The notes beneath the pieces are model-generated. The model had not been told where the DNA came from, did no database searches, and was given only the letters and a program-made list of their open reading frames with translations. Source: a virus. Taken from it: a DNA stretch of 64,000 nt. Where the stretch lies: positions 12,878-76,877 of IMG/VR virus record IMGVR_UViG_3300024999_000080. One strand, written 5' to 3'. Below, in pieces: positions 468-55,991 of this stretch (positions are counted from its first letter, which is position 1; the number at the start of each line of letters is the position of its first letter). A program made the translations under genes and the position numbers.

Positions 468-934
468 AGAAGGAATGATATTTTATGGACTTACTACGGA
501 GAATAGCAATGTATTTAATTTTTGTGATGTGTGCCGTACTAATACAATTTTGTTATTATCCTGCTTATAATCTTAATAACCTTTTCGCCAGTTTATTTTT
601 AGCAATTTTCGTTGCAACTGTTATTGTATTTGCAAGACCAGATATATTCAAATCAAAGAAAAAATTAGGATAAACTTATTCTTTGGATGGATTTTAAGGA
701 GGTAGAACATTATGCAAATTATTAATTACATTTTTATACTTGCACTAATTCTAAGTGGAGTTATATCAATGTTCCCTAAGTATCATAAATTAGGTTTAAA
801 ACTACTTAAGTACGTTTTGTTTACATTCATCCTTTTAAAATTTACTCCAGTTATTTATTCATATATTGACGGATTTGTGAAATAAACATTGATATTGGTA
901 TGATGAGGTGTTATATTTAACTTATATATAGGAG

Positions 935-1825
935 GTGTTTAACATGATCAGAAACATAGGATTCGCTTGCATGAGTAAAAAATGCAATACCAAGCACCAA
1001 ACATTCAGATTGGCATCATTTAGTGAATACAGATTAAAGCAAGCAATTACTCATAATCTCAAAGAAACTGAGCGAACAATCCAACATTGTATTTCTGAAG
1101 GAATTAAATTATTTAGACTAAGTTCTGATTTAATTCCATTTGCTACGCATGATATTATGAAAGATATTGATTATATGTCTTGGATACAATCTGATCTAAA
1201 AAGGATTGGTGGTATAGTAAAAAATAATAATATGCTATTATCAATGCATCCTTCTCAAATGTGCTGTATAAACAGCAATAAAGAAGATGTTGTAAATAAT
1301 TCTATCAAAGATTTGATGTATCATTATGATATTCTTAATTCTATGGGGTTGGATAGTTTTAATATTATTATTCATGTTGGTGGTGTTTATGGCAATAAAC
1401 CGGAAGCAATGAAGAGATTTATTAATGTATTTAATAGTTTACCTGTAGATTTGAGAAATCATATCTTGCTAGAGAATGATGATAAGAGTTATAATATTAG
1501 TGATGTGATGGCAATACACAAGGAAACTGGAGTTAGAGTTGTGTTTGATTATCATCATCATGTTTGCAATAATGATGGTATAGAATTAGATTTAGAAGCG
1601 ATATTTGCCACTTGTGGGATTGGTAATGTGCCTAAGATACATCTTAGTTCACCTAAGAGTATTAAAGAGTTTAGAAGTCATTCTGACATGATTGATTATA
1701 AATATTGTAGAGAGTTCTTTGATAAGTATAATGGTTTGGAATTTGATGTAATGATTGAGGCGAAGGATAAAGATTTGGCTGTTGATAAGTTTATTGAGGA
1801 TTATAGGAGGGAGATGAAGAAATGA
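935..1825 (+). CDS. uvsE: UV DNA damage endonuclease
   Basis: IGFAC, LFRLSSDLIPF, SMHP, IIHVGG, LENDD, FDYHHH, KIHLSS, HSD and MIEAKDKD motifs of UvdE/UvsE. Confidence 0.93.
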   Translation: MFNMIRNIGFACMSKKCNTKHQTFRLASFSEYRLKQAITHNLKETERTIQHCISEGIKLFRLSSDLIPFATHDIMKDIDYMSWIQSDLKRIGGIVKNNNMLLSMHPSQMCCINSNKEDVVNNSIKDLMYHYDILNSMGLDSFNIIIHVGGVYGNKPEAMKRFINVFNSLPVDLRNHILLENDDKSYNISDVMAIHKETGVRVVFDYHHHVCNNDGIELDLEAIFATCGIGNVPKIHLSSPKSIKEFRSHSDMIDYKYCREFFDKYNGLEFDVMIEAKDKDLAVDKFIEDYRREMKK

Positions 1826-4800
1826 AAATCATATGTAATGAAAGTGAAAAGAAATGGTTAATAAAAGTATTAGAAAAAAGTGAATATGGATGCCCTAGAT
1901 TACATTCATTGTCTAGATGTTTAATACAGGCAACAGCAACAGAAGGATGTTTGCCATCAACTTTTGAAAATTGTATAGTTAATCAAATAGAATTCGTAAT
2001 AACTTAAAGTGTGGTTTGATTTGGTAGAGAAAAGGAGTTGGGTATTATGAAATTTATTGCTAATGTTTTAGTAAAAATTGAAGTGGAAGCAGATTCAGAA
2101 GATTTTGCAAAGGAATTGTTAGAAGAAAGAATAGATGGATTATTTTTGGATATAAAGGGCTGTAATATTGAAAAAGGATGCTATTCATTGAAGTCAATTG
2201 GACAAAGAGTAATGAATATTCAAAAGGATAATTTACGATTCGTGTTGAAACTAAAGGATTCAGAATTATATTTAAATTCAAGTGAAAATGGAGTTAATTC
2301 TTACACAAATGATATTAATTTAGCTTTTGTATGGAAGTGTAATACCAACATTAGTGAATTGAAAATTGATGAAGATATGTATGAAATAGTTAAGATTTAG
2401 TACATGAAGGAGTTGAAATAACTTGGCAAAAAATAGTATCGACCTTAGAATCATCACAGAAAATCTAATGTTCGGAGGAATTAAAAATCATCAAGAATTT
2501 GAAGAATTGATTAAAGGCCACTGGGAATATAGAAAAGGCAAGACTGTGGACGATGTCACTGAAGCAATAGAAAAAGGTTTAAAGATGGGTCATGGTAAGG
2601 CTGAGAGGGAAGTTGAATGTGCTACTATGTATTTGGAAACTGTTTTTAAGAAGGTTAAGGTTGTTAAAGTAATTTTGAAGGAGGACGATTAAAATGAAAA
2701 TTGATCTAAATTTGCAAAGTGATAGTTATAATTCACATTGTGAAGAGTTAACTATAAGTTTTGAAGTTATTGAAGATAAAGACTATGTATGGATTCAGCT
2801 TGGAGATAGGGAAGTTGGAGTTAGCAGAGAAGAATTTAGGAAATTGTTGGCTATTGTTTAATTTCAGAAATGTCTAGATTTAATCTAATTGTAAAGGAGA
2901 ATATTATGAGTACAAGATGGATAGGAAGAATGACAAGACTAGCAGGTGATCAATCTACAGAGTATTTATTATGTGGTGAAAAATATATTGATTATTTAGC
3001 TATAATTGACGAAGATGAAAAAGGATATTTTTATCCACGGCTTCATAAAGTTTTATTAGACAAAACTTTAGGGAAAGATGAATTAATGACCGCATGGGCA
3101 ACAAATTTAGCAAGTGCAAAGAAAATGATTTGTATGGACAATGGTTGGAAAAGTAAAGATTTTATATGGGAGAAAGAAGAAATTTAAGGATGTGAAAACA
3201 TATGTTCAATGTAAAAGAATTTAATGATTCAAGACTAATTGAACTCTGTAATGATATATATGATTGGGATACAGGAAATGGTGATATACCTGAAAATTCT
3301 AAATTAAAAAGTTTAATTTCTGCTCATTTTTCTGGTTATCCCAACGCTTATTATATTAGGGATTTAATTATAAGTGAAGCGTATGAAAGATTTAATAAAG
3401 TAGCTAAATTATTAGTAAGAGATAAAACATGGTTTATAAAGTAATTAAAACGAGGATTTTGAAAGAGGTTGTTTAAAATGTTAGGAAATTGTAAGATTAT
3501 AGTTGGAAGTGGATCATCAAAAGACGGACGAAAAGGTTTAGCTTTATGGAATAATAATGATGATTATTATGTACAAATATTTGAAACAAAAGAAGAAGTT
3601 AATGATTTTATTAAAGAAATAGAACAAAAAAAAGATGAGTTATTTACGAACAAATAAAACTAAGATTTGAACGTTTTTGAAAGGAGAATATTTAAAATGA
3701 ATAAATTTGAAGAAGTATTTTCTGGAGTAGATATCGATAAACTTATTATGTATGAAATATACATTAATTTCTCTACTCATAATTTTGATGAATTAAAATT
3801 TGTATATGATAAAGCGGTAGAATATCACAAAACAATATTAAGTATAAGACATTGCGTTAAAAAGGCGATAAATGATGTTATTTTACAACATAAGAAAGTA
3901 GATGATTTTGTTAGGGAATTAATAAAGAGTCTTTAAACCTTTGATTTTCTGGGAGCGAAAGGAGGTAACAAGAAGTGAATAAATTAACATTAGCTGAATT
4001 CGAGGCAATAGACAGAGTAAAAATTAATGCTTTAATATCTTTGCTTGTTAATGAGGATGTTATTAATAGAAAAGAATTTTCGATAATGATAAAAAAGAAT
4101 ATTAATAATCTTGTTGATTGCAGTAGCAAAGAAAAGATAAAAGCAGAAATTAATATGTTTTTGATGAATCTTTAATATAGGAGGAATTATTAAATGAAAT
4201 TACTATGATTATTCACATTAAATCTTAATAATTACATTAAATTTAACTCTATTTTATTAATAAATAAATATTTAAAGGAGATTGTAATATGTATATGCCG
4301 ATTTATTGTAGACAATGTGGCGAACAATTAATCATAAGTAATATGGGATATGTAAGAGATGTAAACAACAAACCAGTGAGTATCTGTAATAATTGTTCTG
4401 AATTGGTTTTAGAGAAATTAAAAGCAGATAGACTAGTAGAAATTTATAAAGGTAATGCAATATATAAAAAAGATAATGTTTATTTCCCATATTGGGGATG
4501 TGCTTATTTTTATAATACCATTGAAGGCGTAAGAGATAGAATTGATCATCATGATATATCTATTGTTCCGACTGATTTGTTAAGAAAAGCAATAATGGGT
4601 GAAGATTTATTATAAATTATGAATATTTATATTTGACTTTCCAACTCATTACATGCTATAATGAATATAGAAATAAATATATAAGGAGTGATGAATAAAT
4701 GGCATCAGGCGAAGGAATTCGAAGTTTTATACATAAGCATTCATTATCAACAAGTTATAAGATAGTTCCTGAAGGAGATAGGAAAATTAATTATATCCCT

Positions 4801-5497
4801 GATGAAAAATATGATTGCCCAGTTTGTGGCAAGCACAATATTGGTACAGTGATAGGTGGGAACAAATTTTGCCAAGATTGTTTCATTGAATATAATCATA
4901 TAGGAATATTCTCTATTCAATGGAATGGTGAATTAGTTCCTTATCATATTAATGAGTTTATAGATTGTGGATAAAGGAGATTACATAAATGAAAAAAGAA
5001 AAAGAAGGAACTTTTCTATGGGTTTTGCAAGAAGTAGCAAAATATGAGGGTGCATTAGCCAGTTGTGCAATTGAAGGGAATGAATTTGGAATAAAGCATT
5101 TAGATGCAATTGAGGATATGGAATTGGTTGGAAAGTATTTGTATTTGAAGAAAGTGTTTGATTATTTGGAAGAGATGTATAATCCTAAAGAAAAGGAGTA
5201 AATTTAATGTATTTTATTACAGGAATTGAGAAGTTAGATAAAGATTATGGTGTAAAAGGTACTAGATGCTTCGGATATAAGAAAACATGGTTAGAAGCAG
5301 ATCATTCTGTAAGGGGTAATTCATGTGATATTAATGAGACTATTTATGATTATGCTGTAATTGAATTTATTGAATCTGGATTGCATTTTATTTGTGATAA
5401 GAGATGGTTTTATAAATTTGATTATGATAAGAGAATGTATGAAGCAATAAGTGAACCTGAAGAAGTTAAGGGATTGTGTAATTTTAGTATTGGGTAA
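1822..5497 (+). other. Array of about 14 small hypothetical phage genes (60-120 aa), some with CxxC zinc ribbons (4289..4615, 4699..4974)
   Basis: Co-oriented ORFs each with an RBS; no recognisable family. Confidence 0.7.
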
Positions 5498-5526
5498 GGA
5501 GATTCTGTTTTATTATAAAATAAAGC

Positions 5527-5555
5527 TTGACACAAATTGATAAATAAAGTATACT
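5527..5555 (+). promoter_or_regulatory. sigmaA-type promoter
   Basis: TTGACA-17 nt-TATACT. Confidence 0.8.
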
Positions 5556-5614
5556 GAACACAAGGAAAACCAAAGACATTATATGAGTTAAGCATTAAAG
5601 GATGTGAAACTAAA

Positions 5615-5638
5615 ATGGGAGTAAAGATTCATACATAA
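5615..5638 (+). CDS. Putative 7-codon leader peptide MGVKIHT
   Basis: AAGGATGTG RBS upstream; near-identical architecture at 10202. Confidence 0.4.
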   Translation: MGVKIHT

Positions 5639-5706
5639 CTAAACAAATTTATCTCAATCATGAATCATTTTAAATTAAAACAAATTATAATATAAATATT
5701 AGGAGG

Positions 5707-8522: not shown

Positions 8523-9002
8523 TTGCTAAGAGATGGAGAACCATGTAGTCATAGAGGTTGTTTAAATCATATCTCACATCCTTGTGAGGGTTGTGGAAGG
8601 ATCAGAGGAAAGAATATAAAGATGAAGGAATATAAGTTTAGAGCATGGGAACCGCTAAACAAGGAAATGATTTATTTTGACGGTTTTATTCCATTTAAAA
8701 TAAGTGATAAATTTATTGAAGGAGCTTTGAGTTCACAGAATCAAGAGAAAAGATATTTAACAGTTATGAATTATGATGCTATTGAATTGATGCAATTCGC
8801 AGGAGTTGATGACTCAAGAGGGTTGGAAGTTTATGAAGATGATATTCTAGAAATTTGGATTGATGGTATCAAGCAAGATAATTATTATATTGTTGAAGAT
8901 TCAAGAGAATTATATCTTGAAATGAATAGGGATGATTCTTATTATCGTATATCAAAGATTAAAGTTGTAGGTAATAAGTGGGAAAATCCTGAGTTGGCAT
9001 AA
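8523..9002 (+). CDS. YopX-family protein with N-terminal Cys/His zinc-binding segment
   Basis: KFRAW, LMQFAG.D..G.EVYEDDI and VVGNKWENPEL motifs. Confidence 0.8.
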   Translation: MLRDGEPCSHRGCLNHISHPCEGCGRIRGKNIKMKEYKFRAWEPLNKEMIYFDGFIPFKISDKFIEGALSSQNQEKRYLTVMNYDAIELMQFAGVDDSRGLEVYEDDILEIWIDGIKQDNYYIVEDSRELYLEMNRDDSYYRISKIKVVGNKWENPELA

Positions 9003-9361
9003 AACAAATATTTTAAGCTATATTTTAGGAGGAAAAATAATGCTATGTCTAAGAAATGAAACTTGTCATAAAGATACGTTATTCTGTTGTTATTCGTGTG
9101 AAGTGGTATGCTCAACAAAAAATGATTGCAATGATGAAGAATGTATAAACAATCCAAATAGTATTATAAATAAAAAAGAGCAAGATATTAAACAAAAAGA
9201 CGATATTGAATGGTTACTAAAAGAATTATTAGAAGCAGGTAAATATGCAGAAGTAGACTTTGAGAAAATTACTGAGGTAGCAAGGCGTAACGGATATGAA
9301 ATTGATGAGGAATTGGATTTAGTTGAAATTGATACAGAATAATAAAAGGAGGAAATGAATA

Positions 9362-9426
9362 ATGAGTTATGGACGCAACCCATATTATATTTACAGCAGT
9401 GGCAGTGGTACTCTAGCAACAGTTTG
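9362..9426 (+). pseudogene. Truncated gene fragment (MSYGRNPYYIYSSGSGTLATV*) running into a boundary element
   Basis: Strong GGAGG RBS but only 21 codons; ends in the repeat element whose core is at 9443. Confidence 0.35.
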
Positions 9427-9544
9427 AAAACTATATATTCCCATAAAAAACCAATTTGATAGGAAATAGAAATTAAACTTGACTTATTATATCAATTTAT
9501 GTTATTATAAATATAGAAATAAATATTTTAGGAGGAGAAAATAT

Positions 9545-10096: not shown

Positions 10097-10113
10097 AATT
10101 ATTCAAAATGCAC

Positions 10114-10143
10114 TTGACAAACAATCAATAAATAATGTATACT
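10114..10143 (+). promoter_or_regulatory. sigmaA-type promoter of the nicotinamidase-TerY-P operon
   Basis: TTGACA-18 nt-TATACT. Confidence 0.75.
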
Positions 10144-10201
10144 TAATACATGGTTAAGTTAAAACATTACATAAATTATTGAAAAGGATGTGAATCAAGA
10201 C

Positions 10202-10225
10202 ATGATCAAAGAGGTATATACATAA
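10202..10225 (+). CDS. Putative 7-codon leader peptide MIKEVYT
   Basis: AAGGATGTG RBS upstream; matches the 5615 leader. Confidence 0.4.
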   Translation: MIKEVYT

Positions 10226-10295
10226 CTAATTTACATTGTTCTCTAATCCTTATTAAATACAAAAATAAAATTATAATGAAAGAAGGAAATTAAAA

Positions 10296-14358: not shown

Positions 14359-16356
14359 ATGATCACTGACATTCCATGTCCTTACTGTAAAGGTACAGAT
14401 ATAAACATTGAAGAAGTAGTTTGGGTATCTTTTAATCAAGAAAATGAAGGATTAGTTGAAATTTTAAATTATTGTCAGACTTGTAAGAGTCAATATCCAG
14501 TATTGACAGAGTTTAAATATGAAGTTATTAAGAGTGAGTATAGGGAGGTTTAGATTTTTATGGATAAGGCATTTGAAATCCATGCCCATTGGGAAGAAAA
14601 TGGAGAATATTTTATTGATACTGATTATAGGCAATTGAGTACAATAAAGAAAACCCAATATGATAAAGCAGTAAAAGATGGTTTTGTTATTATTAAAATA
14701 GATGATGGAGATGTAATATAAAAATGAATATCGTTATTAATAATTGTATTGATTGTTCTTCACATAAGGTATTGCTAGATCCAGACCCTAATGATTGGTT
14801 TTGTGACGATGATGTTAAAGTTGTATGCTCTATAGATAATAGAGAAATTACATGTGCTTGTAGACCATATAATATTAGAAAAGAATGTGATATTCCTAAA
14901 TGGTGTTGGAAATTAAAATAAAGGAGTATTTTTGGAAATTAGTAAAATTAAAATCGTTGCAGGAGTAGGCTTTCAGGGTTCGGCACATGGCATAAAACAT
15001 GTCTTTCGAGGGATATTAAGGTGATTATATATTAAGGAGATGAAAATAAATGAGTTGTTATGCTTTTACATGTCAATGTTTTTATTGTTCAAGAGTTCAA
15101 TATGGTTGTAAAAGAGATACACCTAATAAATGTTCTGAATACAATTGTGGGAATGATGCAGTTTGTTTGCAAGTTTTACCGGAAGATTATTATATTAATC
15201 AATGTAAAAAGTTTGGTAAAGTTGAAAGTGATGTTGGATCTTGTATTGATTGTAGCGTAGAAAATAAGGATTTGTTTTATGCTTGTAGAGATGTTGGATA
15301 TTTGAAAGGTAAAAGTTAAGGAGGGTTAAATGCATAAAATAAAAGGGTATTGGAGTAAATTTGTTTTAATTCAAATGATAGTGATAATACTTTTATCTAT
15401 AATTGGATTACCTAAAAGTAATTTAAGTTTGTTCTTGTGGATGGGAATTATATTATTTGATTCAATAATTACTCATCCTATATGGTACGAAGAGGAGGAA
15501 AATAAATGTATTTAGCAGATGTAATTAAAAATTGCAAAGAAGGAGAAGTATATAAAGCTACTTTTGCAATTGATGAGCATTGGTATATTGCTAAAATAGC
15601 AGGGTTTATTTGGTATTGTGATGAGAATGGAAAAGCATTTGAAGATATGTCAGCAGTACCTTTGACTTATAGTAATTTAAGGGCAGAATATGAGTTAGTT
15701 CAGAAAGGAGCGTTTATATGAAAGAAAAATTAACTGGTATATTTCACAATGAATTTAAAAAGCATTGAGTAACTAAATTTATTAGAAATGGATATGTATT
15801 AATGAAATACAAATATCCAAAGGTTAAAATTCCTTTTACTTCTCCAATGGTGCGATGGGAAAATCTAAATCATTGCGGTGGATGGAGTATGTGCGATGAG
15901 AATGGGGTAGAATTATCAACACAAATAAATCTTATTCAAGATGTTGTTAATGGATTTAAACCTATGGGATTTTGCTATTCCCTTCATAAAGAACAAAAAA
16001 ATGAATTTATGAAGATTATTATTGAGTCTGGATTGCCTTATACTACAGATGAACTAGATTGGAAAAATCCAGATTTTCCAATAAGATATGGTTTCAATAT
16101 TTGCCAGCATGGAAAAATAGGTGATTTACTTGATATTGATGCTGTCATAGAATCATATAATTTATTAGATTTATCCCATGATAAATGGATTTATAATACG
16201 ATAAGAGTTAATCTTTTGAAAATCAAGGACAATAAATTGTCAAATTATCTTACAGATTGGGATTATGGAAATCCTAAAACAGTTATTGAAGCAGTAACAG
16301 TAGGACTTTTATTAGGATATCCAATTGAATCTACATTTGCATTAACGACTTCTTAG
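14359..16356 (+). other. Small hypothetical genes, several Cys-rich
   Basis: Co-oriented ORFs with RBSs. Confidence 0.6.
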
Positions 16357-16897: not shown

Positions 16898-16943
16898 TAA
16901 GAGGGAGAGATAAAATTTAATTGAGTGAATATAATATTTTAAC

Positions 16944-18497: not shown

Positions 18498-18545
18498 AAT
18501 ATATAAGTAAATATAACTAAGATAAAGGAGAGATAATATAAATAG

Positions 18546-19166: not shown

Positions 19167-19179
19167 TAAATAAATATAC

Positions 19180-24686: not shown

Positions 24687-25742
24687 GTGTTTAATATGTC
24701 CATCAATGAAGTTAACGAAGAATTGCAAGATGAAGAGGTAGTATTTGAGGTTGATTCAGAAGTTAAAAAGGAGTTTCTAGAAAATCAATTAAAATCTACT
24801 AGAAGTTTCTACACTTATGTCCTCAAAAGAGCAGATGAATTTGAAACACAGGTTGGCAAGAAAATTTATGACTTCAATATTGAAGATCGTGATGAAATGC
24901 TAACTGTTCAATTCAAGAATAAGAACAAATGGACGTTTCAATCTGCTTTATCTCCTTTAAAAACTTATGTTGACTTCTGTATATCTAAAAGTTTAGTTAG
25001 ACATAATGAGAACAGATTTATGACCATTCTTCCTGCTGATTATAAGGATTATATTAATGACCAAGCACAATGTAATTCTTATATTCCTTTATCTAAATCT
25101 AGAGAACTTCAAAAAAGGTTGAAAAATGATCAAGATAAATTGATTATAGAGTTATCTAGTTTGTCTGTCAGAGGAAGAACTGAAAAGGGGAATACTCTTG
25201 AAGAACTCGTAAATTTAAAGGTTAAAGATATTAAATGGAAGACTAAAGAATTATATCTTACTAAAAACAATGGTGAACAAAGATATATTGAAACTGATGA
25301 TTACACATTAGGTTTACTCAAACGAGTTATAAATCAAACTTTCTATGTCTCTAATAATGGGTTAAAATCTAAGAAAAATGAGGATGGTATTTATGAAGAG
25401 ACTAATAGAGGTAGGGCTATAAGTCCGACTGAATATGTATTTAGAGTTCCCGGAAAGAACAGATTAGGTAAAGTAGATTATCAATTTTTCACTAGCAGAA
25501 TTCAAAGGATGCAAGGTTGGTTAGAAGCTCCTTATTTGACTAGTTCGAATTTATACTTCTCAGCGATTTTAGACTATGCAAAAGAGAAGATGGATGAAAA
25601 AAAGGCAAAAGGAGAAAAATGTGAATTAACCAGAGAAGACTATATTCAAATTAATGAGCGATTTGAGTTTGGTGAAAATGGAGAAAAATATGTATTCAAA
25701 ACCAGAGATTTAGTTAAAATGTATTTTGGTAATGGAGAGTAA
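24687..25742 (+). CDS. Tyrosine-recombinase-fold protein, probably a catalytically inactive repressor (SPbeta YopR/MrpR-like)
   Basis: SAM-like N-terminus, VRG...EELVNLKVKDI box I; the H-x-x-R box II is replaced by SNLYFS. Confidence 0.6.
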   Translation: MFNMSINEVNEELQDEEVVFEVDSEVKKEFLENQLKSTRSFYTYVLKRADEFETQVGKKIYDFNIEDRDEMLTVQFKNKNKWTFQSALSPLKTYVDFCISKSLVRHNENRFMTILPADYKDYINDQAQCNSYIPLSKSRELQKRLKNDQDKLIIELSSLSVRGRTEKGNTLEELVNLKVKDIKWKTKELYLTKNNGEQRYIETDDYTLGLLKRVINQTFYVSNNGLKSKKNEDGIYEETNRGRAISPTEYVFRVPGKNRLGKVDYQFFTSRIQRMQGWLEAPYLTSSNLYFSAILDYAKEKMDEKKAKGEKCELTREDYIQINERFEFGENGEKYVFKTRDLVKMYFGNGE

Positions 25743-28202: not shown

Positions 28203-31200
28203 GTGTTATTTATGATTAGAAGACCTGCAAAAGAAACCTTTATTAACGATATCTGGTGTGCGATTCCTTACAAAAATAATAAGGATAAAATTAGGATTAC
28301 TAAAGAACTAGAAGCAAATAGACATCGGAGAGGCATTAAATTTATTGAAGATGATGAACGTGGAAATATAATTTATTCTCATAAAATGGAGCAAGGTGCA
28401 TTTCATTGATACATAAATCTAAAAATATTTTTAAATAAATCTTACCAAGACCCCCATAATTTACAATTCCCATTCGTATAATCTTATAAGGATTAAATAA
28501 AATTATAAAGAAAAGAGTGAAGAGTAATATGAGAATTACCAAAAGTGTAGAAGTTACAAAAAATGAACAATTTCTAGTAGGTTCTCTTTGTAATAAATGT
28601 GGTGAAGTGTTTGAACCGCATGATGATAAAATACAATCATTTAATTTACAACTTGGGTATCACAATTGGCAATATGAACTCTGTGACGATTGTATTGTAG
28701 ATATGGTTAGAAGTTTTCTTATAGTCCCATCTGGCTTTATGAGCGATCCTAATTTTACTTCTTCATTCGATATTGACCATGAATTACACCAAAATTTGTT
28801 TGACGAGTGGAAACTATCAGGCAAATGGAATTGTGATGAAAATCCTTGGAGAGACTTCTATAGTGAAGATAATTCAGATCAAGAATTTGAATCTTATGAG
28901 GAATATTATGAAGAAATTTCTAATGCAATAGAAGTACGCAAACCATTACGTATCAACGTTGTAAGGTTGGCAACTATTCATAAAATTGGACTTGTAAAGG
29001 AAAGGGGCAATAAAATTAAATGAAAAAGCAAAATGAAGATAAATACTTACCATATACAAAGAAAGATTTTAGAAAATATTGGTGTGATCCTGAATCTAGT
29101 TTTCTAAAGATGCAAACCTTCGAAATTATTAGACCCCTTACTGAAAAGGAGAAATCTGATTGGACAAAAGGTGAAGGCTATGATTACAATGAGGAAATGT
29201 ATTTAATTAGAAATAATAATGGCGAGGAGCGTGAAGTCTTTGATGTCGAAATTCTTATTGAATATGAAATAGACTCTGAGACATGGAGATGTTGTATAAG
29301 TAATTTGCTAGAAAGTATGGAATACGATGATGAGGTTATTATGGAATTTATAAAAGAATGTAAAATAGAACAGTATATTAAAAAACATTGTTAGAAAGGA
29401 GTTGATGGGTTAAATATGATTTTGAGCAATGAAGAATTAATCAAACTTAAAGTATTGATATTGGCAGATTTAGATGAAGAAGATAATTATAATTGTATGA
29501 AATGTACTCCTGAAAATCCTTGTTGTAATTTAATTAGCATATGTAATAAATATGGAACATTCAATTTTATTGATGGTGCAAAGGATATGGTTAGAGATTT
29601 ACTTGATACCATTGAAAGTTTGAAAGATGATTTATTTAATGCAAGCATAATTGACAATTGTATAAATTGTGAAAGAAGTAATAGAACATTAGAGAGATGT
29701 ATTTTAGAAGGGGATGAGGAATTGGAATGCCTTTCAGATAATTATAATTGGCATATTAGAAGGAAATAAGCAAAGTAATTACTATATGAAAGGATGAGAA
29801 AATATTGTATAAAAAATTATTAGACAAAGGATTTAAACCTTACTATTATACCAATGATGATTTCCTAACCTCTACATCGTGCAAAAGTAGATTATTTTAT
29901 AGTCTAAAAGTTAATAACGAAGATTTACAAAACTCTATATTAAATGTGCTAAACAAATATAATGATTATTTCTCTATTTTATTAGAGCAAGATTTAGTAT
30001 CTTGGATTGAAACTGATGAATATTTAGAATCATTTTGGTGGTATTTTTATAATACAGATAAAGATAATATTGAAATATCTTCAGAAGAAATGAAGAAAAT
30101 ACTAGAAGTTTTACCTAACAAATTTATTTTCGAACATAAAGATTGGTAAATAAAATCTATGTTTGATTCTAAGTTAGAAGAAAGGAGAAAATTATGATTT
30201 GGTTCCCTTGGGGAATGGTATGTGGAATATTATTGTCTGTAGTATCATTTAGTAGGTATTTATACAAATACAAATTAGATTTATTATTAAAGGCTTCTAA
30301 TGGAGATTTAGAAGAAATATTAAATCATGTAGTAAGATTAAGATTGGAGGATCAATAAAATTGGAACTAAAAAATTACTCTGAAGAATGTTTAAAATGCA
30401 AATGTAGAACTTGTAAATCAACATATGATAGATCAGATATGTATGCCACTTGCTTTACATGGTGTGAAGAACATTGTAAAGGAGAAGATCCTATTGATTT
30501 TAGAGAAGATATAAATAAGGAATGTCATACTCCAATCATTGATGATAAAAATATAATGATAACCGTAGAAGAATATAAAACTCTAAAAGAAAAGGCAAGT
30601 ATGTATGATGATTTGTGTAAGTAGGAAGGAGTAGCTTATGAAAATGAATTTTTCCATAAACATTGACAATAGTGATATAGACTATGTTGAATCTGAGATA
30701 ATTAAAGAGTCAGCAAGACAGGTGATTAATGAAGTTTTATCAAATAGATATGAACATCATGGAAGAACCTTTAAAGATAAATTGAAAGAAGAAATTAAAA
30801 CTATGTTGACCGACATAATGGATACTGATTTTAAAAATGAAGTTAAGAACGCTTTAGTATTAGATTTAGAGAAAAAATATATAAGAACAAAACAATACAA
30901 AGAAGTTAAAGAGCAGTTTGAAATATTATCTGAAACTGAAACAAAAGCAGGTTTGAAAGATTTTATAAGTGACATTGTTAAAACTGAAATTAGAACTAAG
31001 TTTAAATAAAATACAGATTTCGAGTTAAGTAAAATAAAATTTAGGAGGAAAACAAATATGAATAATAAAGAATTTGACATTAATTACATGATAGGTGATA
31101 ATCTTATTAATTTTCAAATCGGTACAGAAGTATACTATATTGAAAGTAAATACTCTGAAAAATATGAGTATTGTAAAGAATGTAAAACTGGTCATTCAAC

Positions 31201-33878: not shown

Positions 33879-33993
33879 AATTTCACAGGCATACAAAGCA
33901 GTCATACCAAGGGTTTCAAAATTATAAAATCCTAGCAAATTGTGATTTTATGGGAGTTAAAAATAAATTAAAATAAAAAGGAGAAATGATAAA

Positions 33994-38027: not shown

Positions 38028-38080
38028 CAAACACTATATGTAGTGTCTAGTATTACAAAACACACTACATATAGTGTTTG
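38028..38080. promoter_or_regulatory. Tandem NrdR-box-like operators forming a perfect 19-bp inverted repeat
   Basis: ACACTATATGTAGTGT (38031) and ACACTACATATAGTGT (38062), 31 bp apart. Confidence 0.6.
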
Positions 38081-41000
38081 AAATCCCATAAGTTATCGAT
38101 TTCGAGGGATAAGGAGTCAAAACGACAATGAAAAATGATATTCCACAACGTATTAAAGACAATCCAAGCATTTATATACCCGATGGCCTATATTGTCACG
38201 GAAGAGCATCAAAAATAAGAGTGTGTCCTTTTTGGGATTTAGACAAAGAGAAACCAGAACAGCAAAATGGTTATTGCCATTATTTAAAACAAGGTGATTG
38301 GGATTTTGATTATACAGGATTACTTTGGGACATGTGTAAAGAGTGCGACATAAATTTATCTTCATAATTTAAAATACCAAACTTATTTGATAAAGAAAGG
38401 AATGATGAAAATTAATATAAGAAAAGATTTATTTAAAATTTTTCAAGAGAACAAAGATGAATATGATTTGTATGAAAAAGTAGTGAATTATATTGAGTCA
38501 AAAATAGAAACCACAAAAGGCGAGGAGAATGCAGAATTTTATTATCAAATAATGCAACTAGAAAATAGTATTAATAATGCAGGATGGGAAGATCGTCATT
38601 CTCAACAAATCCAAAAATTATGGGATATTCAAAATAATATTACAGGTAGATATGAAAAATATTTATCATAGAATCAAAGGATTATTTCATGCCAAGTAAG
38701 AAAGGAGTAAACTATGCGTAAATACATAGTAGATAATTTAGAAAATACATCAACCAATGAACATAATTTCGACCAAGAATATCACAATAAATATATTTCT
38801 AAAACAGGAGAAGTAATTAAACATGATTATAAATCAGGAGTATTTAAATCATTTATATGTTTAGGCTTTGATAAGGATGAAAAAGGATTCTTTACAGATG
38901 TTGATTGGTTTCATGTTTGTGATTTGAGGAATCCACAGTTTGGTGGTTAAATTGGAAAGGTGTAAGGAGTATGAACAATGAAAATTAGAATTATCAAAGA
39001 TATGTCAGCAGAAAATAATAGTACAGTTTTAATTACTAAATTTATTGGTAAAGTGTTTGATGCAAAACTATTTGGGTTTACCACAGTTAGAGTAGATTTC
39101 GGTGAGGATTTAGGTGAGTTACATGTTTATAAGGGAGAATACGAGGTTGTAGAATCCTAACACGAAATTTAACATTTATCGTAAAATAGAAAGGAATTGA
39201 TTTAAACAAGATGGAAGAAAGATTTATTGAGTGGACTACTAGGAATATAGAATTTAAAACAAACTCAAACAACTAATGTATCAGAGTATCAAAGGAAAAA
39301 TTAAACATTATGAAATGGATAGTGGAAAAGAGAATAGAAATAAAGGCATAGTGTGTAAATGTTGTTTTTATCTAAGAAATACGTTTGGATTTTCAGCAAT
39401 GACATTATCATATTGTGGAATCTGTAAAGAACCAATTCTCAATGGTAGTTCAGATACAAATAAAGTGTGTGATAAATGTGCAGGGATTAATGATTTATGC
39501 ATACATTGTGGTGGAAAAATGGATTGAGTTCAATTAAACTTATGGACTTATAGGAAAATAAAAAGGAGGATGGCAATGGACTTTAAAGTAGGAGATAGGG
39601 TTAAAGTTGTAAGAATATCTAATGAGGATGATGTATTTGATGTTGAACCAATGTACTTAATAGGTAAAACTGGTACAGTTGTGACAATTGAGAGAAGTAA
39701 GTATATGCCTTTAGATGACACAGACTGTCCCTATCAGATAAAGTTTGATGATGATATTTCTCAAGAATCAGGCAATCTTTATTGGGAAGAAAGAGAGTTA
39801 GAACTGATAGAAGCAATTAATGAAACTAAAATGACAGGAAGAAAAAAATTCAATTTAATATTTGCAAATATGACGAATGAAAGTTTAGCAGATTTGTTTC
39901 TTGGAGGAAGTTGCCCTAGTGAATTTGGTCTTTTTGACAAAAAAGAAACCGGATGTCCAGATTTTATTTGCACAAGTTGTTGGGAAAAAGCTTTAGATAT
40001 GGAGTATGAACAATAAATGGAGGAAATAATATTATGACAATTTGCAAAGAATGTGAATTTTATTCAGAGGATTATTTAACTGGATTATCTCCACAAGATC
40101 AATTAGATCATACTAGTGGTCACTGTATGGATTCTAGTAATCCAGATTTTAATGAATGGGCAAGAACATTTGGTAAAGGTATTGCTAGAGAAGATTCATA
40201 CACAAATCCTAAATGGTGTGCTAAAATTGATAATCCTGAAACAACAGTTGAAGATTATAGTGAAGAGGAAATTAGTGAATTAGTTGCAGTAGAAAAAAAT
40301 TATCGTAAATTAATTGCATATATAAAACATGCAAGATCAAATGATATGCTTTGGTATTAATTAAATAGAAGGAGTTGATTAAATGGATTTAAAAGTTGAA
40401 CCACAAAAACATTCAATAATGACATTGTATGGAACAGATACTCAAGAAATACTCCGTTTTGAACCTAATGGCGATATCTTTATTCATGGCAAATTATCAG
40501 CTAATGATAGGGAAATAACTGATGGATTTAGAGAATTTTTAGGACAACAGGGATTTTAAAAATCAAATAAACAGAACATTTTATGTTGATTGGAGGTGAA
40601 AGTAATGAATGATAAAATCTTGGTTGAATTAACTAAAGAAGAAATGAACATTGTCAAGAATGGAATGTTGCTAATTTTATCCCTTTCAAAGAGAAGTCAA
40701 ATTGATTTGAGAAATAATGCTAAAGATTTATATGAAGGCATTTATAATAAATTTGATTTATTGTATGAAAATAAATGGTATTAAGTCAAATATTCCAGAG
40801 TAAAAATAAAGGAGGAAATAATTAAATTGAATAATACGATATTTATACCAAAAACAATTAAAGTTGGCTACCAAACACGCGATGATACATATACAGGCCA
40901 ACTAGCATACATTATTTATTTTGATCAAAAAGGAGTTTTAAGAAAGGAAAGAAGTTGGGAATCATGGAGAGATAAAAAAATTGAATCACAAGAATTTTTA

Positions 41001-42412
41001 AATGAACCAACTTCAGGATTTGTTTTAAATAAGAAGGTAGGGGATTACAGCTCTCATTGGAGTCACAGACAAGCATATGTAAGGGTTTACGACCCTCGTA
41101 ATTTTGAGTTTGAAGTCACAATAGAAAACCTGCTTTACATTCTTGAAAATGCTAGTTCTATCAAAGGTAAGGGTTTAGAGGGATTTTTCGTGTACGGTTG
41201 GGATGGCAAGGATCTTCTCTTAATGCCTGTGGAGTCACCAGATTACAAAGAGATTACTGAATATAGTGAAATGATTCTTCGAAACAGTTATGTTAAAGCA
41301 AAAGACTTAAAACTAGGTGCAACATATAAAACCAAAACAAATGAAGAATGGATTTATATGGGTAGATTTGACTATCATACTACTAGAAGTGATAAGATAG
41401 AGAGACCACAAATTAATTCTTATAGTTATTATCGTTCATATGATTATGTTCAAGTCAATGTCAACAAAGGTAAACATCATTTCTTTACTAGAGAAACTAA
41501 AGATTATTCATATCTAAGCATATTAACCATTAAATCACTTGGGGAAAGATTCATAGACACTGTATCAACTGATTGTGTAGAAAATTATGCTGAATTATTT
41601 GAAAAACTTGAATGTAAAACTGAATATTCTCCATATGATGAAAGCAAAGATGAATATATTAAATATACATTTGAAGAATTCTGTGAAAAATTAAAAGGTA
41701 GTAGAGGATTATACTGTTGGGATACGCTAAATAAAAATATATATGTAACTAATTTTTATAATGACCAAAACAGATATTATTTTGAAGATAGAAATAGTAA
41801 TACTAGTAAAAAGATAGAAGGTACTCTTGAAGAAATTTACAATATCATCCAACCAATGTACAAAAATGAATACCTAGAAAACAATAAATTATATAGAGAG
41901 GGGAAATAAATATGAAAACTGAAACAAATGATTTAAAAATTATGGAACTAAAAAAGCAAATTGAGGATAAGAAAAGTTTAATAAATAAATCTCAAAAATT
42001 CTCACCAATTACTAATTGTTCTGTTGAAATTGATGGAGAGCGTTCTAATCTACAAGTGTTAACAAAAGATAAGTTAATTTCCTTATTAGTTAAACTTAAT
42101 TCATATGCAATATCTGCTAAAGATTTAGAGGTTGATTTTGTTATTTCTGGTTATCATGTTGCGGATTGGATTACAGATATTAAGTCTAAACTTGATTTTG
42201 TAAGTAGAAAAGAAGAAGAAAATAAACTTAAAGTTATGGAATCCAAATTGCATCAATTACTTTCTAATGAAAAGAAAGTTGAACTTGAAATTGATGAGAT
42301 TATGAAAAATTTGTAATAAATCTTAAAAATTCAAAAAGTGAAAGTGCCTTGTAGCAAGGGTTACAGGGCATGGTACTTCCATTAAAATCTGACTTTTATC
42401 GTAAAATAAACC

Positions 42413-43816: not shown

Positions 43817-44664
43817 GTGATGATAATCCCAGATAGATTAAAACAAACTTATTATAATATGAAGCAAAGATGTTATAATCCTAATGCAAAGGATTATAAA
43901 AATTATGGATGGCGAGGAATAATTGTTTGTAAAGAATGGTTAAATAATAGTAAATCATTTTATGATTGGGCGATAAACAATGGATATACTGATAAATTAA
44001 CTATAGATAGGGAAAATAATGATGGAAATTATGAACCAGATAATTGCAGATGGGTTACAAGAAAAGTTCAAAACAATAATAAAGCAAATAATAAAATTAT
44101 TGAAATAGATGGTATATCAAAAACGATAGCACAGTGGAGTGAAGAAACAGGCGTTCCTCCCAATACTCTTAGTTATAGGATTGGTATTGGACTGAAAACA
44201 TATAAAGATTTATTTGCTATTCCTAGCCACGTTGAAATAGAAATAAATAATCAAACTAAAACGTTATTAGAGTGGTCAAAGACATCCGGATTAGATACAG
44301 CGACAATTTATAGACGATATACGGCAGGATGGGATAATAATGATTTATTATCAGAATTAATAGATATTACGAAACATATAGAAATCAATGGAGAAATACA
44401 TACCGCAACAGAATGGGCAGAAATATCTGGTTTAACTAGAGATATAATATTGCATAGAATATCATATGGTTGGAAAAATGAAGATTTATTAAAACCTAAA
44501 ACAAAAGAGATAAAGAAAAAAATATTGAAATTGATGGCGAATCCCACACTAAAGATGAATGGTGTGAAATTTTAGATATCAGTCCAACGACATTTTATAG
44601 AAGAATGAAGAATGGTATTTCTAATATTAATTTATTAAGAAAAAAATACAAATTTCAATTATAA
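43817..44664 (+). CDS. HNH homing endonuclease with repeated C-terminal HTH units; the last unit is frameshifted at A7 (44516-44522)
   Basis: MKQRCYNP...TIDRENNDGNYEPDNCRW; three IEI(D/N)x...(Q/E)W units, and a fourth (NIEIDGESHTKDEWCEIL...) in the -1 frame ending at 44664. Confidence 0.8.
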
Positions 44665-48670: not shown

Positions 48671-49499
48671 GAATATATACTAAAGAAAGAGGAGGTAAGA
48701 AATGAAAGGTTTATATCAAAAATATCTTATATTCAAATCGGACGGTTCACCAGTTGACCCAAATGCAGAATACATAGTTTTAAGAATAGATGCTGATCAA
48801 TGTGCAAGAAGAGCAGTAAGATATTATGCTAATCAGTTACTTCGCGAAGGAAGTTTAACTCAATTAGCTGATGACCTAAGAAAAAGATGTGATTATTACT
48901 GGATGAAAGAGCAAGGATTTACGGATGAAGAAATAGAACGATCTTTAAAAGAAATACATAAATAATCCAATAAGTTATTTCATTCGAAGGAGATTAGAAA
49001 GGAGGTTACTTATGAATAGATATCCAAGTGAAACTGAAAACTGTGGTAACTGCAAATACAGTCATGGTGATTGTTATGATCGTTGGTATGAAATTAATGA
49101 AGTAGATAATAGTAATTATCTTGGCAAGGGTGAAATAATTAACTGTTGGGAACATGAATAGTTAAGGAGAGTGTTTAATTTAATGAAGAAAACGGTAGAA
49201 TTAAAGTACCTAACACCTTTGGAATTTGTGGCAATGTATGCCAGAGAGGAATTAAAAGAAGAGTGTTTTAAACTTGAAAAATATGCTCAAAAGACTATAT
49301 TGGGAATTATTGAATTGATTAGCAAAAATGATACAGATAAATTAATTAATGAAGTTTTTGATAAATTTGCTCCAGAAGTTGGATATCTATATTGTGAAGA
49401 TCATAATATATTTCACGAATATGAAAAATGTCCATTCTGTCAATTAGGGATACGAGTTGGTTAAATAATTATAAAATAAATATTAGGAGGAATACATAA

Positions 49500-49767: not shown

Positions 49768-49859
49768 TTCTCATATTTTCAGGAAGTTACGATTCTAAGA
49801 ATCAAGCTATAAGCCACTTTCAAGGTTCGTAACTTCCATTAAAAAGTCGATTTAAATGG
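49764..49859. repeat. Non-coding unit bounded by two boundary motifs, with an internal 11-bp inverted repeat
   Basis: GGAAGTTACGA ... TCGTAACTTCC between cores at 49764 and 49839. Confidence 0.55.
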
Positions 49860-52800
49860 AGGTGAAATTATTGAAAAAATATCCTTGGAATAAATCAGAA
49901 TTAGAATCAATACATAATGAAATATTACAAACTACATCTGAACAAAAATATTATATCTTAGGGGTAGCTCAAGGATTTTATCATATTTATCAAGTGTTAA
50001 ATAAACATAAGGATAAAACTTTTACTGGTTTAGAATTGATGGAAATTATCAAATATGCAGGTAGTAATGAGCAAAAAATAAAAGAATATTTTGATAGATT
50101 GTTATTAGATTTAGAAAGTGAATAAAAGAAAGAAGGAATTAACAATGACAAAAACTACAGGATTAACTATCCATCTTTATACAACTAAAGAAGAATTGGA
50201 CAATGCTAAAAATGGAATCAGCACAATTGTAGGATGGACTAAAGAACAGAAACAAACTGGTGCAATTTATCATATCAGTGCGTCTGCGGATATTTGTGAT
50301 GTTCTAGAAAAGGAAGTAAGAATTAATGTTTCTAAAGTAAAAGAACAGATGGATGCGGCTGGATTAATGGTAGGTGAAGCAATTGGTAAAGAATTAGAAA
50401 AGGTATTTAAGGCATTTGCTTAATAATTTGAAAGGAGAGAAAAACAAATGGATTACGATGACTATGAAAATCAGTATGAACCAAGTGAGGTAGATCAATT
50501 AGTTGAAGAATTTAAAGATAAATGCAGAGAACATTTATTACCTAATATTCGTGAAGAAATTGAACGTCTTAACAAAGAAAATATTGAACTCAAACACAAA
50601 AATGACGAATATAGAAAACGAGAATCTGAAATCAATAACAAAGAAAGGGATTTAAAATATAAAGAAGATAATCTCAAAAGAGAAGTGGAAAAGGAATTCT
50701 ACGCAAGTAATATAGGTGATACTTTAAAAGATTACATAGAGAAAGCTGAAGTATGGTTTGCTGATAGAAAAGGATTCTCTCAAGAGAAATGCTCTTTATG
50801 CAATGATAAACGTAAATTGGTTGCTAAGTTCCCTGGTGGTAAAACAACAGAAATGAATTGTGATTGTAGTAATTTAGTACATAGATTTATTCCAGAAACA
50901 TCGGAGTTATCTCTAATTAAATTTAATAAAAAAGATAGTCGGTATCAATCAAGTAGAAGTTTTTATATATCCAAAAGTTATATTCCATCAAAAAATTCTA
51001 GTTACAGAGATGAATACAGTTATAATGAATTTAGGCTTTGCCAGATAGTAGATATATTTAATGAAGGTATTAAGGAATTACATGAATCTAAAGAGTATAA
51101 TACAAAGGTTGGATTTAAAACTAAAGAAGAATGCCAAAAGTATTGTGATTGGTTGAATACAAAGACCATCAAAAATTAGTTTGAATAATTACAAGTAGAA
51201 AGGAGTATAAATATGCCACCAAAATATGAAATAGGTAATGGAACTTTTACAATGTATGATGGGAATGGAAATATTGTAATGGAAGGCACTATGGATAACT
51301 ATAAACCAAAAGAATTTAAACTAGAAGGAGCTAAAAATAATATGGAAAAGTTTGATTTAAAAAAGCATTGGAATATATTTATTAACAATGGATTGGTTGT
51401 AAATTGTAAAACTGAAGCATTAGCAAATGAATTTATAACTTATTGTTATAAGAATAATATTAAATGGTTTGGAGTAGACAATGAATTAAATTATTGGAGT
51501 ACATATAGGGAAGAAACTTCTTATAGATATGAGAGATATATTACTTATGCAAATAAACAATATTTTGAAAAAGCTGGTTATCAGGCAATAGAGTTTGACG
51601 GATTTTTACATAAAAAACCCAAGAGCAAAACAATCATAATTAAAGAGTTCATCGAAGTAATTTATCACGGTAAAGAAACAATCGTTTTAATTAAAACAGA
51701 AGGTAGATATTATAAAGGGGTTGTTAAATGTCATTATCAAGATATATATGACAAAGAAGAAGGATTTAAAAAGGCATATGCAATTGCAAGAGAAAAATAT
51801 AAAGAGTTTAAAGGAGAGAAATAATTAAATGATAGACTATATGATTTGAAAGGAGGTAGGGAATTTGACTTGTTGGGTAATTTATAAATACAAGGATAAA
51901 TTAAGTGGGAATATGGCGAAGAAATTCATTGGTGATACATATGCAGAAATAGAACAAGATGCTAAAGAATGGTTGAGTACAAGAAATGATATTGAAGTGA
52001 TTGATGTTTCTGAATCAGTAATGGAAGATGATGATTGATTCAAATAAAGTTTCATTTTCTGGGATTTTAAAAAATAATTTAAATTAATAAAAGAAAGAGG
52101 TAAAAATTATGAGAATTAAAATTGTTAAAAATGATCCTCCTACTGATGGTTCAAGCGACATTAGTAAATATATTGGTCAGATTTTTAAGGTTGTTCCACA
52201 GGGAGACGGAGATGTTTCAATAGATGATGAAAGTGAATTATTTGCAATGACAATATTCAATGGTGAATATGAAATCATTGAGGAGGAAAATAAATAAATG
52301 CATATAGAATTTAATCTATTTAAACTAAAGAAAGACAGTAAAACATATCAACAATGGGCAACTAAAGACTATATGCAAAAGGAACTGGATTGTGACATTA
52401 TTATTGTTGGAGAAGAAAAATTAGGCAATAAATTATATCTTAGAGGTTCTACTGTTGGCGAAAAGGGATTATGCTTGATTGGTGGTTTATTATTGGATGA
52501 GAGTGGTTATTTAATCCCAGAAGAAGATTTAGAATATACATCTTGTTCGACAGAATTTAGTATTAATAAAAAATATTTGAATGTAAGAATCATTGAGGAT
52601 ATTCAGAGAATTAATGAAAGATTGGTTGGGTAAAGGAGAAATAATATGAAATTAAATTTTACAGTTGAGATGGAAAAAGATAATGACATATATGACTTAG
52701 AAGAAGAATTAATTAGAAGAGCATCAGAAAAATTCATTGAACAAGTTCTAGGAAGTTCATGGAATAAAACTGATCTCTATGAAAAACTTGAAAACGCTGT

Positions 52801-53919: not shown

Positions 53920-53989
53920 TTACATTCAATTGTCCGTTTTATTTGGATTAATATAAATATAAAAATAATTTGATAAAGGAGAGTAATTA

Positions 53990-55145: not shown

Positions 55146-55815
55146 ATGAAGAGAGAACATGTTATTGTGGGATTAAAAGTTGCACCTCATTCAAAAAGTT
55201 ACTGCGGAAACTTAGAAAGCAGTATTAATTGGCAACATGCTAAAAATATAAATCAAGCATATTTATTTGTATCAAAGATTTGTTCCAATTATATTGTTTT
55301 AGACTCCATAGAAGGATCGAATGGTGGAGATTTTTTTCTTGCCAGAAGATTTTGAATTGTACATAGAAAATAATAATGAAAGTAGGAGTGTTAAAATGAA
55401 AAAGTCTGACCTAAATAGTTCTATGTTATTTAAAATGAGAAATGGAGATTTATGTGTTTTATTAGAAGACAATGATGATGCTAAAGTATTTTGTAATGAA
55501 AACGATATTCAACAAGGATATAGTTCTAATTGTGTAACAATAGAGGACTATGATGATGATTTATCTAGCGAAGGTGATGATTATGATATTGTGGCAATCA
55601 AACAACTTGATAGTTGTGTAAGGGTTATATCTGATGTTTTAGAAGACAATGAGCCAAAGAATTGGGATTGGGTTGAAGAGGTTGAAAAAGAGGAATCAAA
55701 AGTAGAAAACAATAACCAAAATATTACAATTAATATTACAATTGATTCAAAAATTGATATTAATGATTTAATGAGGGAATTATCGTCAAAAATTAAAAAT
55801 GTTAGCAATTATTAG
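55146..55815 (+). pseudogene. One gene split by a T7 homopolymer frameshift (55331-55337)
   Basis: ...SNGGDF joins FLPEDFELY... if one T is removed. Confidence 0.55.
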
Positions 55816-55821
55816 ATCCTC

Positions 55822-55991
55822 AAGAAATTTTGATTTTATAGGGTTATGCCCAAAATGACCACAAACTCAAATTTTAATAAAAATCATTAAAATAGTCCTG
55901 TAACTGTTGCTACATAAGGGTTTGCGGTCATTAAATAGGTGTAAATGATTATTCTATATATTGCATCCAATAAAAATGAGATTTTATGTTG
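55822..55991. repeat. Non-coding unit bounded by two boundary motifs, with an internal imperfect inverted repeat
   Basis: Cores at 55822 and 55970; aatgaccacaaac / gtttgcggtcatt. Confidence 0.55.

Follow-up and report, generated by a model that had tools for sequence, protein, structure and literature searches.

The DNA considered here is a window of 64,000 nucleotides, bases 12878-76877 of a linear virus contig of 76,877 bp from a groundwater metagenome (IMG/VR record IMGVR_UViG_3300024999_000080). It has 29% G+C, and every gene is on the + strand. Its SPbeta-like gene content comprises YopX, a DndB/YopQ-like gene followed by an MrpR-like integrase-fold protein, a Sak4-like annealing protein, DnaB, a primase, a RecJ-like nuclease, agrB, MazF and an NAD ligase. 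Between the small accessory genes recurs a short, A/T-rich element with two inverted arms around a variable 6-bp spacer, which the original prediction, made from the sequence alone, had taken for about 26 oriented sites of a possible recombinase-built gene-cassette array. We find that this dyad occupies the stretch from the stop codon of a small accessory gene to the ribosome-binding site (RBS) of the next gene, and that it is a shared feature of the accessory-gene junctions of this SPbeta-like phage group. For comparison, 17 relatives were available in IMG/VR (contigs of 24-230 kb, mostly 100-230 kb), with 70-88% identity to the window; the closest are G001 (230 kb, complete), G002 and G003. 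Megablast and tblastn searches of the 'phages' collection gave no close relatives, and a plasmid search gave distant helicases only.

The motif is real, but looser and present in fewer copies than first claimed. A sequence of the proposed form does stand at all 26 positions, though mostly as a loose match, and we consider 12 of them solid, 8 plausible and 6 weak (Table 1). The strict form ATAAAA-N6-TTTYRW occurs four times on the + strand and twice on the - strand, against 1.2±1.2 expected from shuffles, and a matrix built from the 26 listed sites contains only 11 bits of information. Motif discovery by expectation maximization under a zero-or-one-occurrence-per-sequence model (ZOOPS-EM) was applied to RBS-masked intergenic regions without prior input; it yielded aATAAAAtttAtATTTTATgGGAa and recovered 21 of the 26 listed sites, with a score that was marginal relative to shuffles (402 vs 354±32). 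The decisive, non-circular evidence comes from an independent position weight matrix (R1-PWM), which was trained on the relative G001 alone and applied at a cut-off of at least 10 bits with dinucleotide shuffles as the null. This matrix matched 17 intergenic regions of the contig, 13 of them in the window, against 0.9±1.0 (maximum 4) in the shuffles. It recovered 12 of the listed sites and added one new site in the window, 39534. The sequence TTTNNNGGGA occurs nine times on the + strand, and seven of these copies fall in the intergenic 12% of the genome. Moreover, expectation maximization (EM) found the same motif de novo in G001, in G002 and in L005+L006, three lineages of related low-GC phages; it returned other motifs or none in the GC-richer relatives L003-L004 and L007-L016, and also in G003 and L009.

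These numbers bear directly on whether composition alone produces the motif, with the TAA stop plus an A-run, a T-run and a G-rich RBS mimicking it in AT-rich intergenic DNA. Such mimicry would suit the small excess of the strict consensus, the low information of the 26-site matrix, the marginal EM score, the six weak sites and the lack of positional signal when sequences are aligned on true stop codons. It does not account for the 17 matches of the independent matrix, for the recovery of the same motif in three other phage lineages, or for the 34 copies against 3 control copies in phage SPbeta and the zero counts in other B. subtilis phages described below. As an explanation of the whole, chance is extremely improbable, and it is largely refuted for a core of ~13-21 sites. 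It is the best account of the six weak sites, which have leave-one-out scores of 1-8 bits and were not recovered by the G001-trained matrix; even so, block ends are shared at one of them, 2003 (2001, 2006).

In its fuller form the element is a 26-bp dyad, tTCCmATAAAA-N6-TTTYRWgGGAa. The sites had been described as oriented, which proved mistaken: minus-strand matches coincide with plus-strand matches, and the apparent orientation, GGGA on the right against TCC on the left, is predicted by the G>C skew of the strand. The predicted placement held up. Twelve left arms overlap or abut a real stop codon (of open reading frames (ORFs) of at least 60 aa), the sites precede the next RBS, and the TerY-P, agr/repressor and replication blocks contain no site of 12 bits or more. 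The motif of G001 and G002 usually begins 0-2 nt past the stop codon and ends 12-25 nt ahead of the start codon. A general gene-end signal was considered and rejected, as the profile is flat when anchored on true stop codons; given no signal on stop codons as a whole, the motif belongs to a subset of junctions, all of them in accessory-gene stretches. A sigma70 promoter was also rejected, there being no consistent -35/-10 pair with either arm as the -10, and in scans for promoter-like and terminator-like sites the yield did not exceed that of shuffles.

The constant position between stop codon and RBS on the coding strand raises an RNA-level role, in which the element would be a processing, stability or translation-control site in intercistronic mRNA, with its GGA motif, 8-20 nt upstream of the Shine-Dalgarno (SD) sequence, and the SD GGA acting as a CsrA-type pair. 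An RNA hairpin is rejected, as RNAalifold finds 0 consensus pairs in the alignment; within individual sites the two arms do not complement each other, and being AU-only they are too weak to hold a hairpin. Nor would a single-stranded signal have any use for arms and flanks that are reverse complements, and the right flank in SPbeta is AGA, not GGA. Together these observations make an RNA-level element highly improbable.

Table 1. Junction dyads of the window and two phage proteins discussed in the text. The 13 solid sites are 12 listed originally plus 39534; 8 sites are plausible and 6 weak. EM, recovered by ZOOPS-EM; R1-PWM, score of at least 10 bits with the G001-trained matrix.
Feature	Grade	Coordinates	Strand	Sequence and remarks	Support
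Site 9443	solid, orphan	9439..9466		ttCCCATAAAA-aaccaa-TTTGATAGGAa; sigma70-like -35 13 nt downstream	R1-PWM; EM z=0.99, 14.7 bits
Site 14992	solid, best site	14988..15015		tGGCATAAAA-catgtc-TTTCGAGGGAt	EM 20 bits; R1-PWM
Site 33934	solid	33930..33957		aTCCTAGCAAA-ttgtga-TTTTATGGGAg	EM; R1-PWM
Site 38088	solid	38084..38111		aTCCCATAAGT-tatcga-TTTCGAGGGAt; directly after long hairpin 38028-38080	EM; R1-PWM
Site 39162	solid	39158..39185		TAACACGAAA-tttaac-ATTTATCGTAa	EM; R1-PWM
Site 39534	solid, new (unlisted before)	39530..39557		gTTCAATTAAAC-ttatgg-ACTTATAGGAa	R1-PWM
Site 40567	solid	40563..40590		aATCAAATAAAC-agaaca-TTTTATGTTGa	EM; R1-PWM
Site 42382	solid	42378..42405		cTTCCATTAAAA-tctgac-TTTTATCGTAa; sigma70-like -35 13 nt downstream	EM; R1-PWM
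Site 48970	solid	48966..48993		aATCCAATAAGT-tatttc-ATTCGAAGGAg	EM; R1-PWM
Site 49839	solid, left end of 8-gene block	49835..49862		cTTCCATTAAAA-agtcga-TTTAAATGGAg	R1-PWM
Site 52043	solid	52039..52066		gATTCAAATAAA-gtttca-TTTTCTGGGAt	EM; R1-PWM
Site 53925	solid, right end of 8-gene block	53921..53948		aTTACATTCAAT-tgtccg-TTTTATTTGGa	EM; R1-PWM
Site 55970	solid	55966..55993		cATCCAATAAAA-atgaga-TTTTATGTTGt	R1-PWM
Site 670	plausible	670..691		stop TAA of upstream gene inside left arm (offset +1)	EM 14.4 bits
Site 3654	plausible	3654..3675		left arm contains stop codon	EM
Site 3933	plausible	3933..3954		TTAAAC-ctttga-TTTTCTGGGAg; left arm contains stop codon	EM 16.9 bits
Site 8999	plausible, strict-consensus match	8999..9020		left arm contains stop codon	EM
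Site 30150	plausible	30150..30171			EM; stop-codon offset
Site 31006	plausible, strict-consensus match	31006..31027		left arm contains stop codon	EM
Site 38673	plausible	38673..38694		also matched by SPbeta-derived matrix	EM
Site 55822	plausible	55822..55843		G001 homology begins at 55819	EM
Weak candidates	weak	2003 (2003..2024), 3445, 31420, 43313, 49764, 51168			leave-one-out 1-8 bits
Sak4-like single-strand annealing protein		57324..58343	+		phrog_124, E 8.7e-31
MrpR-like integrase-fold repressor		24687..25742	+	26% identity to SPbeta YopR	PF22822 1.5e-12; Phage_integrase 16 bits

A sharper motif of the same geometry occurs in Bacillus phage SPbeta, whose short junctions carry ATAAAA-N6-TTTTAW. 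Over the whole record (NC_001884), WTAAAA-N6-TTTYRW is found 34/35 times, against 3/3 for a reversed control pattern, and there are no copies in SPP1 or SPO1. The early region of SPbeta holds 27 copies where 1.4±1.1 are expected; 24 of these are intergenic, and in nine the left arm contains a stop codon. With its flanks, the SPbeta dyad reads TCTrrATAAAA-N6-TTTTAWnyAGA. The outer triplets are lineage-specific, with both of them changed: TCC/GGA in the window lineage and TCT/AGA in SPbeta. We saw the SPbeta junction motif described nowhere in the literature searched, and such absence is no proof of novelty.

Comparison of SPbeta with Goe13, phi3T, SPbetaL4 and SPbetaL2, over the regions 84-100 kb and 110.8-130.8 kb, shows that the sites mark module exchange points in Spbetavirus to the nucleotide. 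In the first region, 11 of 33 unique block ends lie at most 6 nt from a site (P=0.0005 even with all ends thrown onto junctions), as do 6 of 50 block ends in the second (P<0.001 under a uniform null, 0.14 with all ends thrown onto junctions). Of the 17 intergenic sites, 14 are touched by a block end. The ends coincide exactly with the outer edge of an arm, either where the left arm starts or where the right arm stops, and one joint lies at the boundary between left arm and spacer. Two cases illustrate this precision. In phi3T and SPbetaL4 a hybrid site takes its left flank and left arm from site 87598 and its spacer and right arm from site 88399, with removal of yoqH-yoqI. In SPbetaL4 a 2.2-kb block that includes Gad1 replaces yoqY and is bounded exactly by two sites. 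Many other Spbetavirus joints are found at RBS or start-codon microhomologies.

In the window, each of the 11 informative site-bearing junctions is a breakpoint, and the 12 contiguous junctions are all free of sites, a difference that is not significant. Single cases also agree with exchange at junctions. Homology to G001 ends at 694, just past site 670, and a stretch of it begins at 3922, with site 3933 and its spacer conserved together with the downstream gene; further ends are at 2001/2006 and at 55819, from which point G001 conserves the 440-nt intergenic region that holds site 55970. Homology to three relatives ends at the stop codon at 33878, upstream of site 33934, and homology to three relatives also stops at 42317, near site 42382. 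Two sites survive as isolated conserved islands, 9443 as 52 nt, amid unrelated flanks, in G002 and L001, and 39162 as 42 nt in G002. Runs of the metagenome from which the phage itself comes, which here are contigs of a mixed phage population, add a variant from which the 8-gene block bounded by sites 49839 and 53925 is missing. Its joint, 49829->53950, was seen in 3 runs and contains a site-like filler of 36 nt, such that the window reads site - 8 genes - site where the variant has a single site-like filler; most joints in these runs were short-sided and were excluded, and uncovered parts are uninformative. The original prediction had proposed to look among relatives for breakpoints inside the 6-bp spacer. 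The one clean indel among the relatives of the window is an extra 82-aa ORF of G002 just downstream of site 14992, with its joints in ATATTAAGG RBS-like repeats downstream of the site; these joints lie outside the spacer, and the insertion brought no second site along.

How such precise boundaries could arise depends on what acts at the dyad. The array proposed originally stands as a real, lineage-wide junction feature that coincides with module boundaries in Spbetavirus; its recombinase mechanism found no such support. Pfam scans of about 60 proteins detected no catalytic tyrosine recombinase in the 77-kb contig, where the only integrase-fold protein is the MrpR-like one, scoring below the Phage_integrase cut-off of 27 bits, and the complete (100%), motif-rich 230-kb genome of G001 has no Phage_integrase (PF00589) match. 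A dedicated tyrosine recombinase is unlikely. Tests of the analogy with integrons came out negative. Integron attC arrays resemble the window in that imperfect inverted repeats recur between accessory genes of one orientation, but attC sites are 57-141 bp long and recombine as folded single strands, whereas the dyad is a non-folding 26 bp (sites of 18-28 bp, with no consensus pairs), and the window lacks an IntI-type integrase and attI/Pc.

A site-specific cassette system of another kind would use the dyad as a core site with a 6-bp crossover region, cut by a host Xer-type or an unrecognised phage recombinase, with modules of one to few genes excised or inserted. Geometry is its main attraction. 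Xer/dif-type sites (difSL, difH, Bsdif; PMC5357621) are defined by a 6-8-bp centre between two partially symmetric arms of ~11 bp, and the dyads of both the window and SPbeta have this layout, with ~10-11-bp arms and a 6-bp variable centre. The arms also resemble those of difSL, TTTCCGAAAA / TTTTCTTGAAA (PMC5357621); difSL-like arms are aTCCGAGAAAA just outside the window, TTCCGATAAA in G002, and TTTTCTGGGAa in G002 and L017. The centre of difSL itself, however, is 11 bp rather than 6 bp. Block ends exactly at arm edges in Spbetavirus, the block with a site on each side, and the single site in the metagenome variant that lacks the 8 genes likewise fit such a system. The pdif sites of Acinetobacter plasmids bound modules of one to few genes, as the dyads do, but the junction dyads are degenerate and symmetric and lack the alternating XerC/XerD orientations of pdif modules. 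Several observations speak against site-specific cutting: beyond the missing recombinase in the contig and in G001, the recombined sites have unlike spacers, the G002 insertion lies outside the spacer and has one site only, many joints are at RBS or start codons, and the degeneracy of the window sites is unusual for recombinase cores. We therefore regard a site-specific system as quite unlikely.

The dyad could instead be a purely regulatory binding site, its coincidence with mosaic joints being a by-product of its position at gene boundaries. In cluster A mycobacteriophages, the repressor (gp71 of L5) binds at about 30 intergenic stoperators and blocks read-through transcription. Like the dyads, stoperators are ~30 copies of a short motif in short intergenic gaps that often overlap stop or start codons. 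The symmetric dyad with its lineage-specific outer triplets would suit a regulator, as would an N6 spacing, since the half-site spacing of 434-type operators fits a helix-turn-helix dimer. Three sites lie just upstream of sigma70-like promoters, and two SPbeta sites adjoin operators of the SPBRE type: dyads at 76170-76187 and 129296-129313 of NC_001884 stand directly beside SPBRE, upstream of aimR and yosX, so that junction dyads and SPBRE sometimes form composite elements. Stoperators differ, however, in being asymmetric, orientation-dependent and bound by the immunity repressor, whereas the junction element is a dyad and the SPbeta master repressor acts at SPBRE.

The original prediction had offered, as an alternative, operators for the integrase-fold repressor, and this version is disfavoured for three reasons. 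First, SPBRE, which we derived from seven MrpR-bound SPbeta regions as caaatacaAAAAATATGTATATA, is near-invariant and unrelated to the dyad, and the window holds no comparably invariant repeat. Like the dyad, SPBRE recurs between genes of SPbeta-like phages and in some cases stands immediately before an RBS, and the window encodes an MrpR homologue; SPBRE differs in having 15 bp of unrelated sequence and about 10 copies in promoter regions (PMC10516654). Second, chromatin affinity precipitation sequencing (ChAP-seq) of MrpR in SPbeta gave 10 peaks, all at SPBRE (PMC10516654). Third, G001 carries the same dyad although its MrpR is just 28% identical to that of the window phage. The MrpR-like repressor is thus probably not the protein that uses the sites. 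For regulation in general, no candidate binding protein is known, block ends match arm edges beyond what junction placement gives, and the hybrid site exists. An exclusively regulatory role appears unlikely.

We favour, with moderate confidence, a reading in which the dyad is a conserved junction linker, probably protein-binding, at which general recombination crosses over when modules are exchanged. That the dyad is two-fold symmetric, and that both of its outer triplets differ between lineages, suggests upkeep by a symmetric DNA-binding protein. As almost the sole sequence common to otherwise unrelated junctions, the dyad would be a favoured crossover point for homology- or microhomology-driven recombination, for which the Sak4-like annealing protein of the phage is a candidate engine of the relaxed type. 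Crossovers there may add, delete or replace modules of one to few genes and leave both neighbouring genes intact. Relaxed homologous or microhomology recombination is favoured because the joint types are mixed and Sak4-like and RecJ-like genes are present, as described for the PeSL (promoter early stem-loop) elements of T4-type phages (PMC2839356). We infer both the binding of a protein and the identity of the recombination machinery.

PeSLs are short conserved intergenic cassettes that flank small non-essential genes in hyperplastic regions of T4-type phages (PMC2839356, PMC4122927), and in both systems recombination between copies would explain insertions, deletions and replacements among close relatives, as the hybrid site, the two-site block and the 17 block ends of Spbetavirus indicate for the dyad. 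The elements themselves differ. A PeSL is a sigma70-like promoter plus a terminator hairpin of ~50-70 nt, whereas the dyad spans 18-28 bp, is A/T-rich and contains neither a sigma70-like early promoter nor a terminator stem-loop; some sites merely follow unrelated hairpins.

Several results weigh against the junction-linker reading. Arms of 6-10 bp are short for recombination by an annealing protein, and no binding protein has been identified. Because mosaic joints persist mostly at gene boundaries in any case, selection by itself would produce some of the coincidence. The second SPbeta region (110.8-130.8 kb) is not significant under the strictest, junction null (P=0.14). In the window the junction test is not significant either (11/56 vs 0/12), and block ends are no nearer to sites than gene junctions in general (7% vs 11% for the null). 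Block ends are imprecise there because the relatives are 70-88% identical. Finally, the SPbeta-derived matrix barely matches the window genome (4 vs 0.4 at 8 bits), so that the kinship of the two motifs rests on core and geometry and not on the flanks; from these shared features, the window and SPbeta motifs appear homologous rather than analogous.

Some sites have further sequence around them. Five (9443, 14992, 33934, 42382, 49839) could be grouped as a ~55-nt 'long' element family, which we rejected, since a better reading is of individual sites with short open frames and GGGTT-rich or hairpin sequence in front of them. The short open frames end in the left arms with alike C-termini (..FENYIFP*, ..FKVRNFH*, ..YRAWYFH*). 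The GGGTT-rich motif, GGGAGTAGGGTTRCARG / GTTTCAGGGTTC, lies upstream of several of these sites (9409-9440, 14960-14985 and 42350-42375; in relatives, L001 14010-14045 and L002 19113-19135), and its orientation varies among phages. The motif and the alike frame ends may be scars of lost gene ends. At site 33934, the gene with stop TAG 33876-33878 has a frame that stays open for 18 codons more, until a second TAG inside the site (33876-33935). The hairpin directly upstream of site 38088 has a near-perfect 19-bp stem (-34 kcal/mol, z = -7.6). Between sites 49764 and 49839, a stem at 49782-49838 pairs 11 bp perfectly (GGAAGTTACGA...TCGTAACTTCC) around a 34-nt loop (z = -2.8), and in G002 (L027) the homologous stretch follows a site. 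A scan for tRNA and tmRNA and a search of Rfam at gathering thresholds gave nothing that explains the longer elements. Two leaders of ~170-200 nt (5510-5715 and 10113-10279) follow strong sigma70-like promoters, TTGACA-N17/18-TATACT; they are ~70% alike, share the blocks AAAGGATGTGAA and ACATAACTAA, and the same leader is kept in G001, G002 and G003. These conserved leaders may be cis-regulatory leader RNA.

Other features of the contig stand apart from the dyad. A cluster at 16481-21806, upstream of the YopQ/MrpR-like pair, holds agrB (PF04647, 20085-20243), two MazF/PemK-domain genes and a DUF5317 gene, with no junction sites inside. The MrpR-like protein had no phmmer match among Protein Data Bank (PDB) sequences; its homologue in G002 (L047, G002:159419-160468) is 87% identical, and the matched frame is interrupted by an internal TAA stop. 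The largest direct repeat of the window, 22291-22522 / 43859-44090 (232 nt, 78% identity), lies inside two genes of 242 and 252 aa without a Pfam match, which are probably paralogues. Outside the window, contig bases 1-12877 (L051) carry two Mom-family genes side by side (5609-6136 and 6140-6778), a metallo-beta-lactamase-fold protein (1192-1911) with a sub-threshold match to the anti-Pycsar protein Apyc1, and more junction sites at contig 11881 and 12484.

The accessory regions of large temperate phages are turnover zones of anti-defence, toxin and communication genes, and how single genes are swapped there without breaking their neighbours is poorly understood beyond the PeSLs of T4-type phages. 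It is decidedly doubtful that SPbeta-like phages have a dedicated gene-cassette exchange system, with 26-28-bp dif/att-like dyads and a host Xer-type or unrecognised phage recombinase. If they did, phages would have their own equivalent of integrons or pdif modules, and modules of one to few genes, including the anti-defence gene Gad1, would move as units between co-infecting phages or prophages. A dyad that is common to a groundwater phage lineage and has a close counterpart in the model phage SPbeta offers a genetically tractable handle on modular exchange in B. subtilis, and the motif could predict cassette boundaries in metagenomic SPbeta-like genomes.

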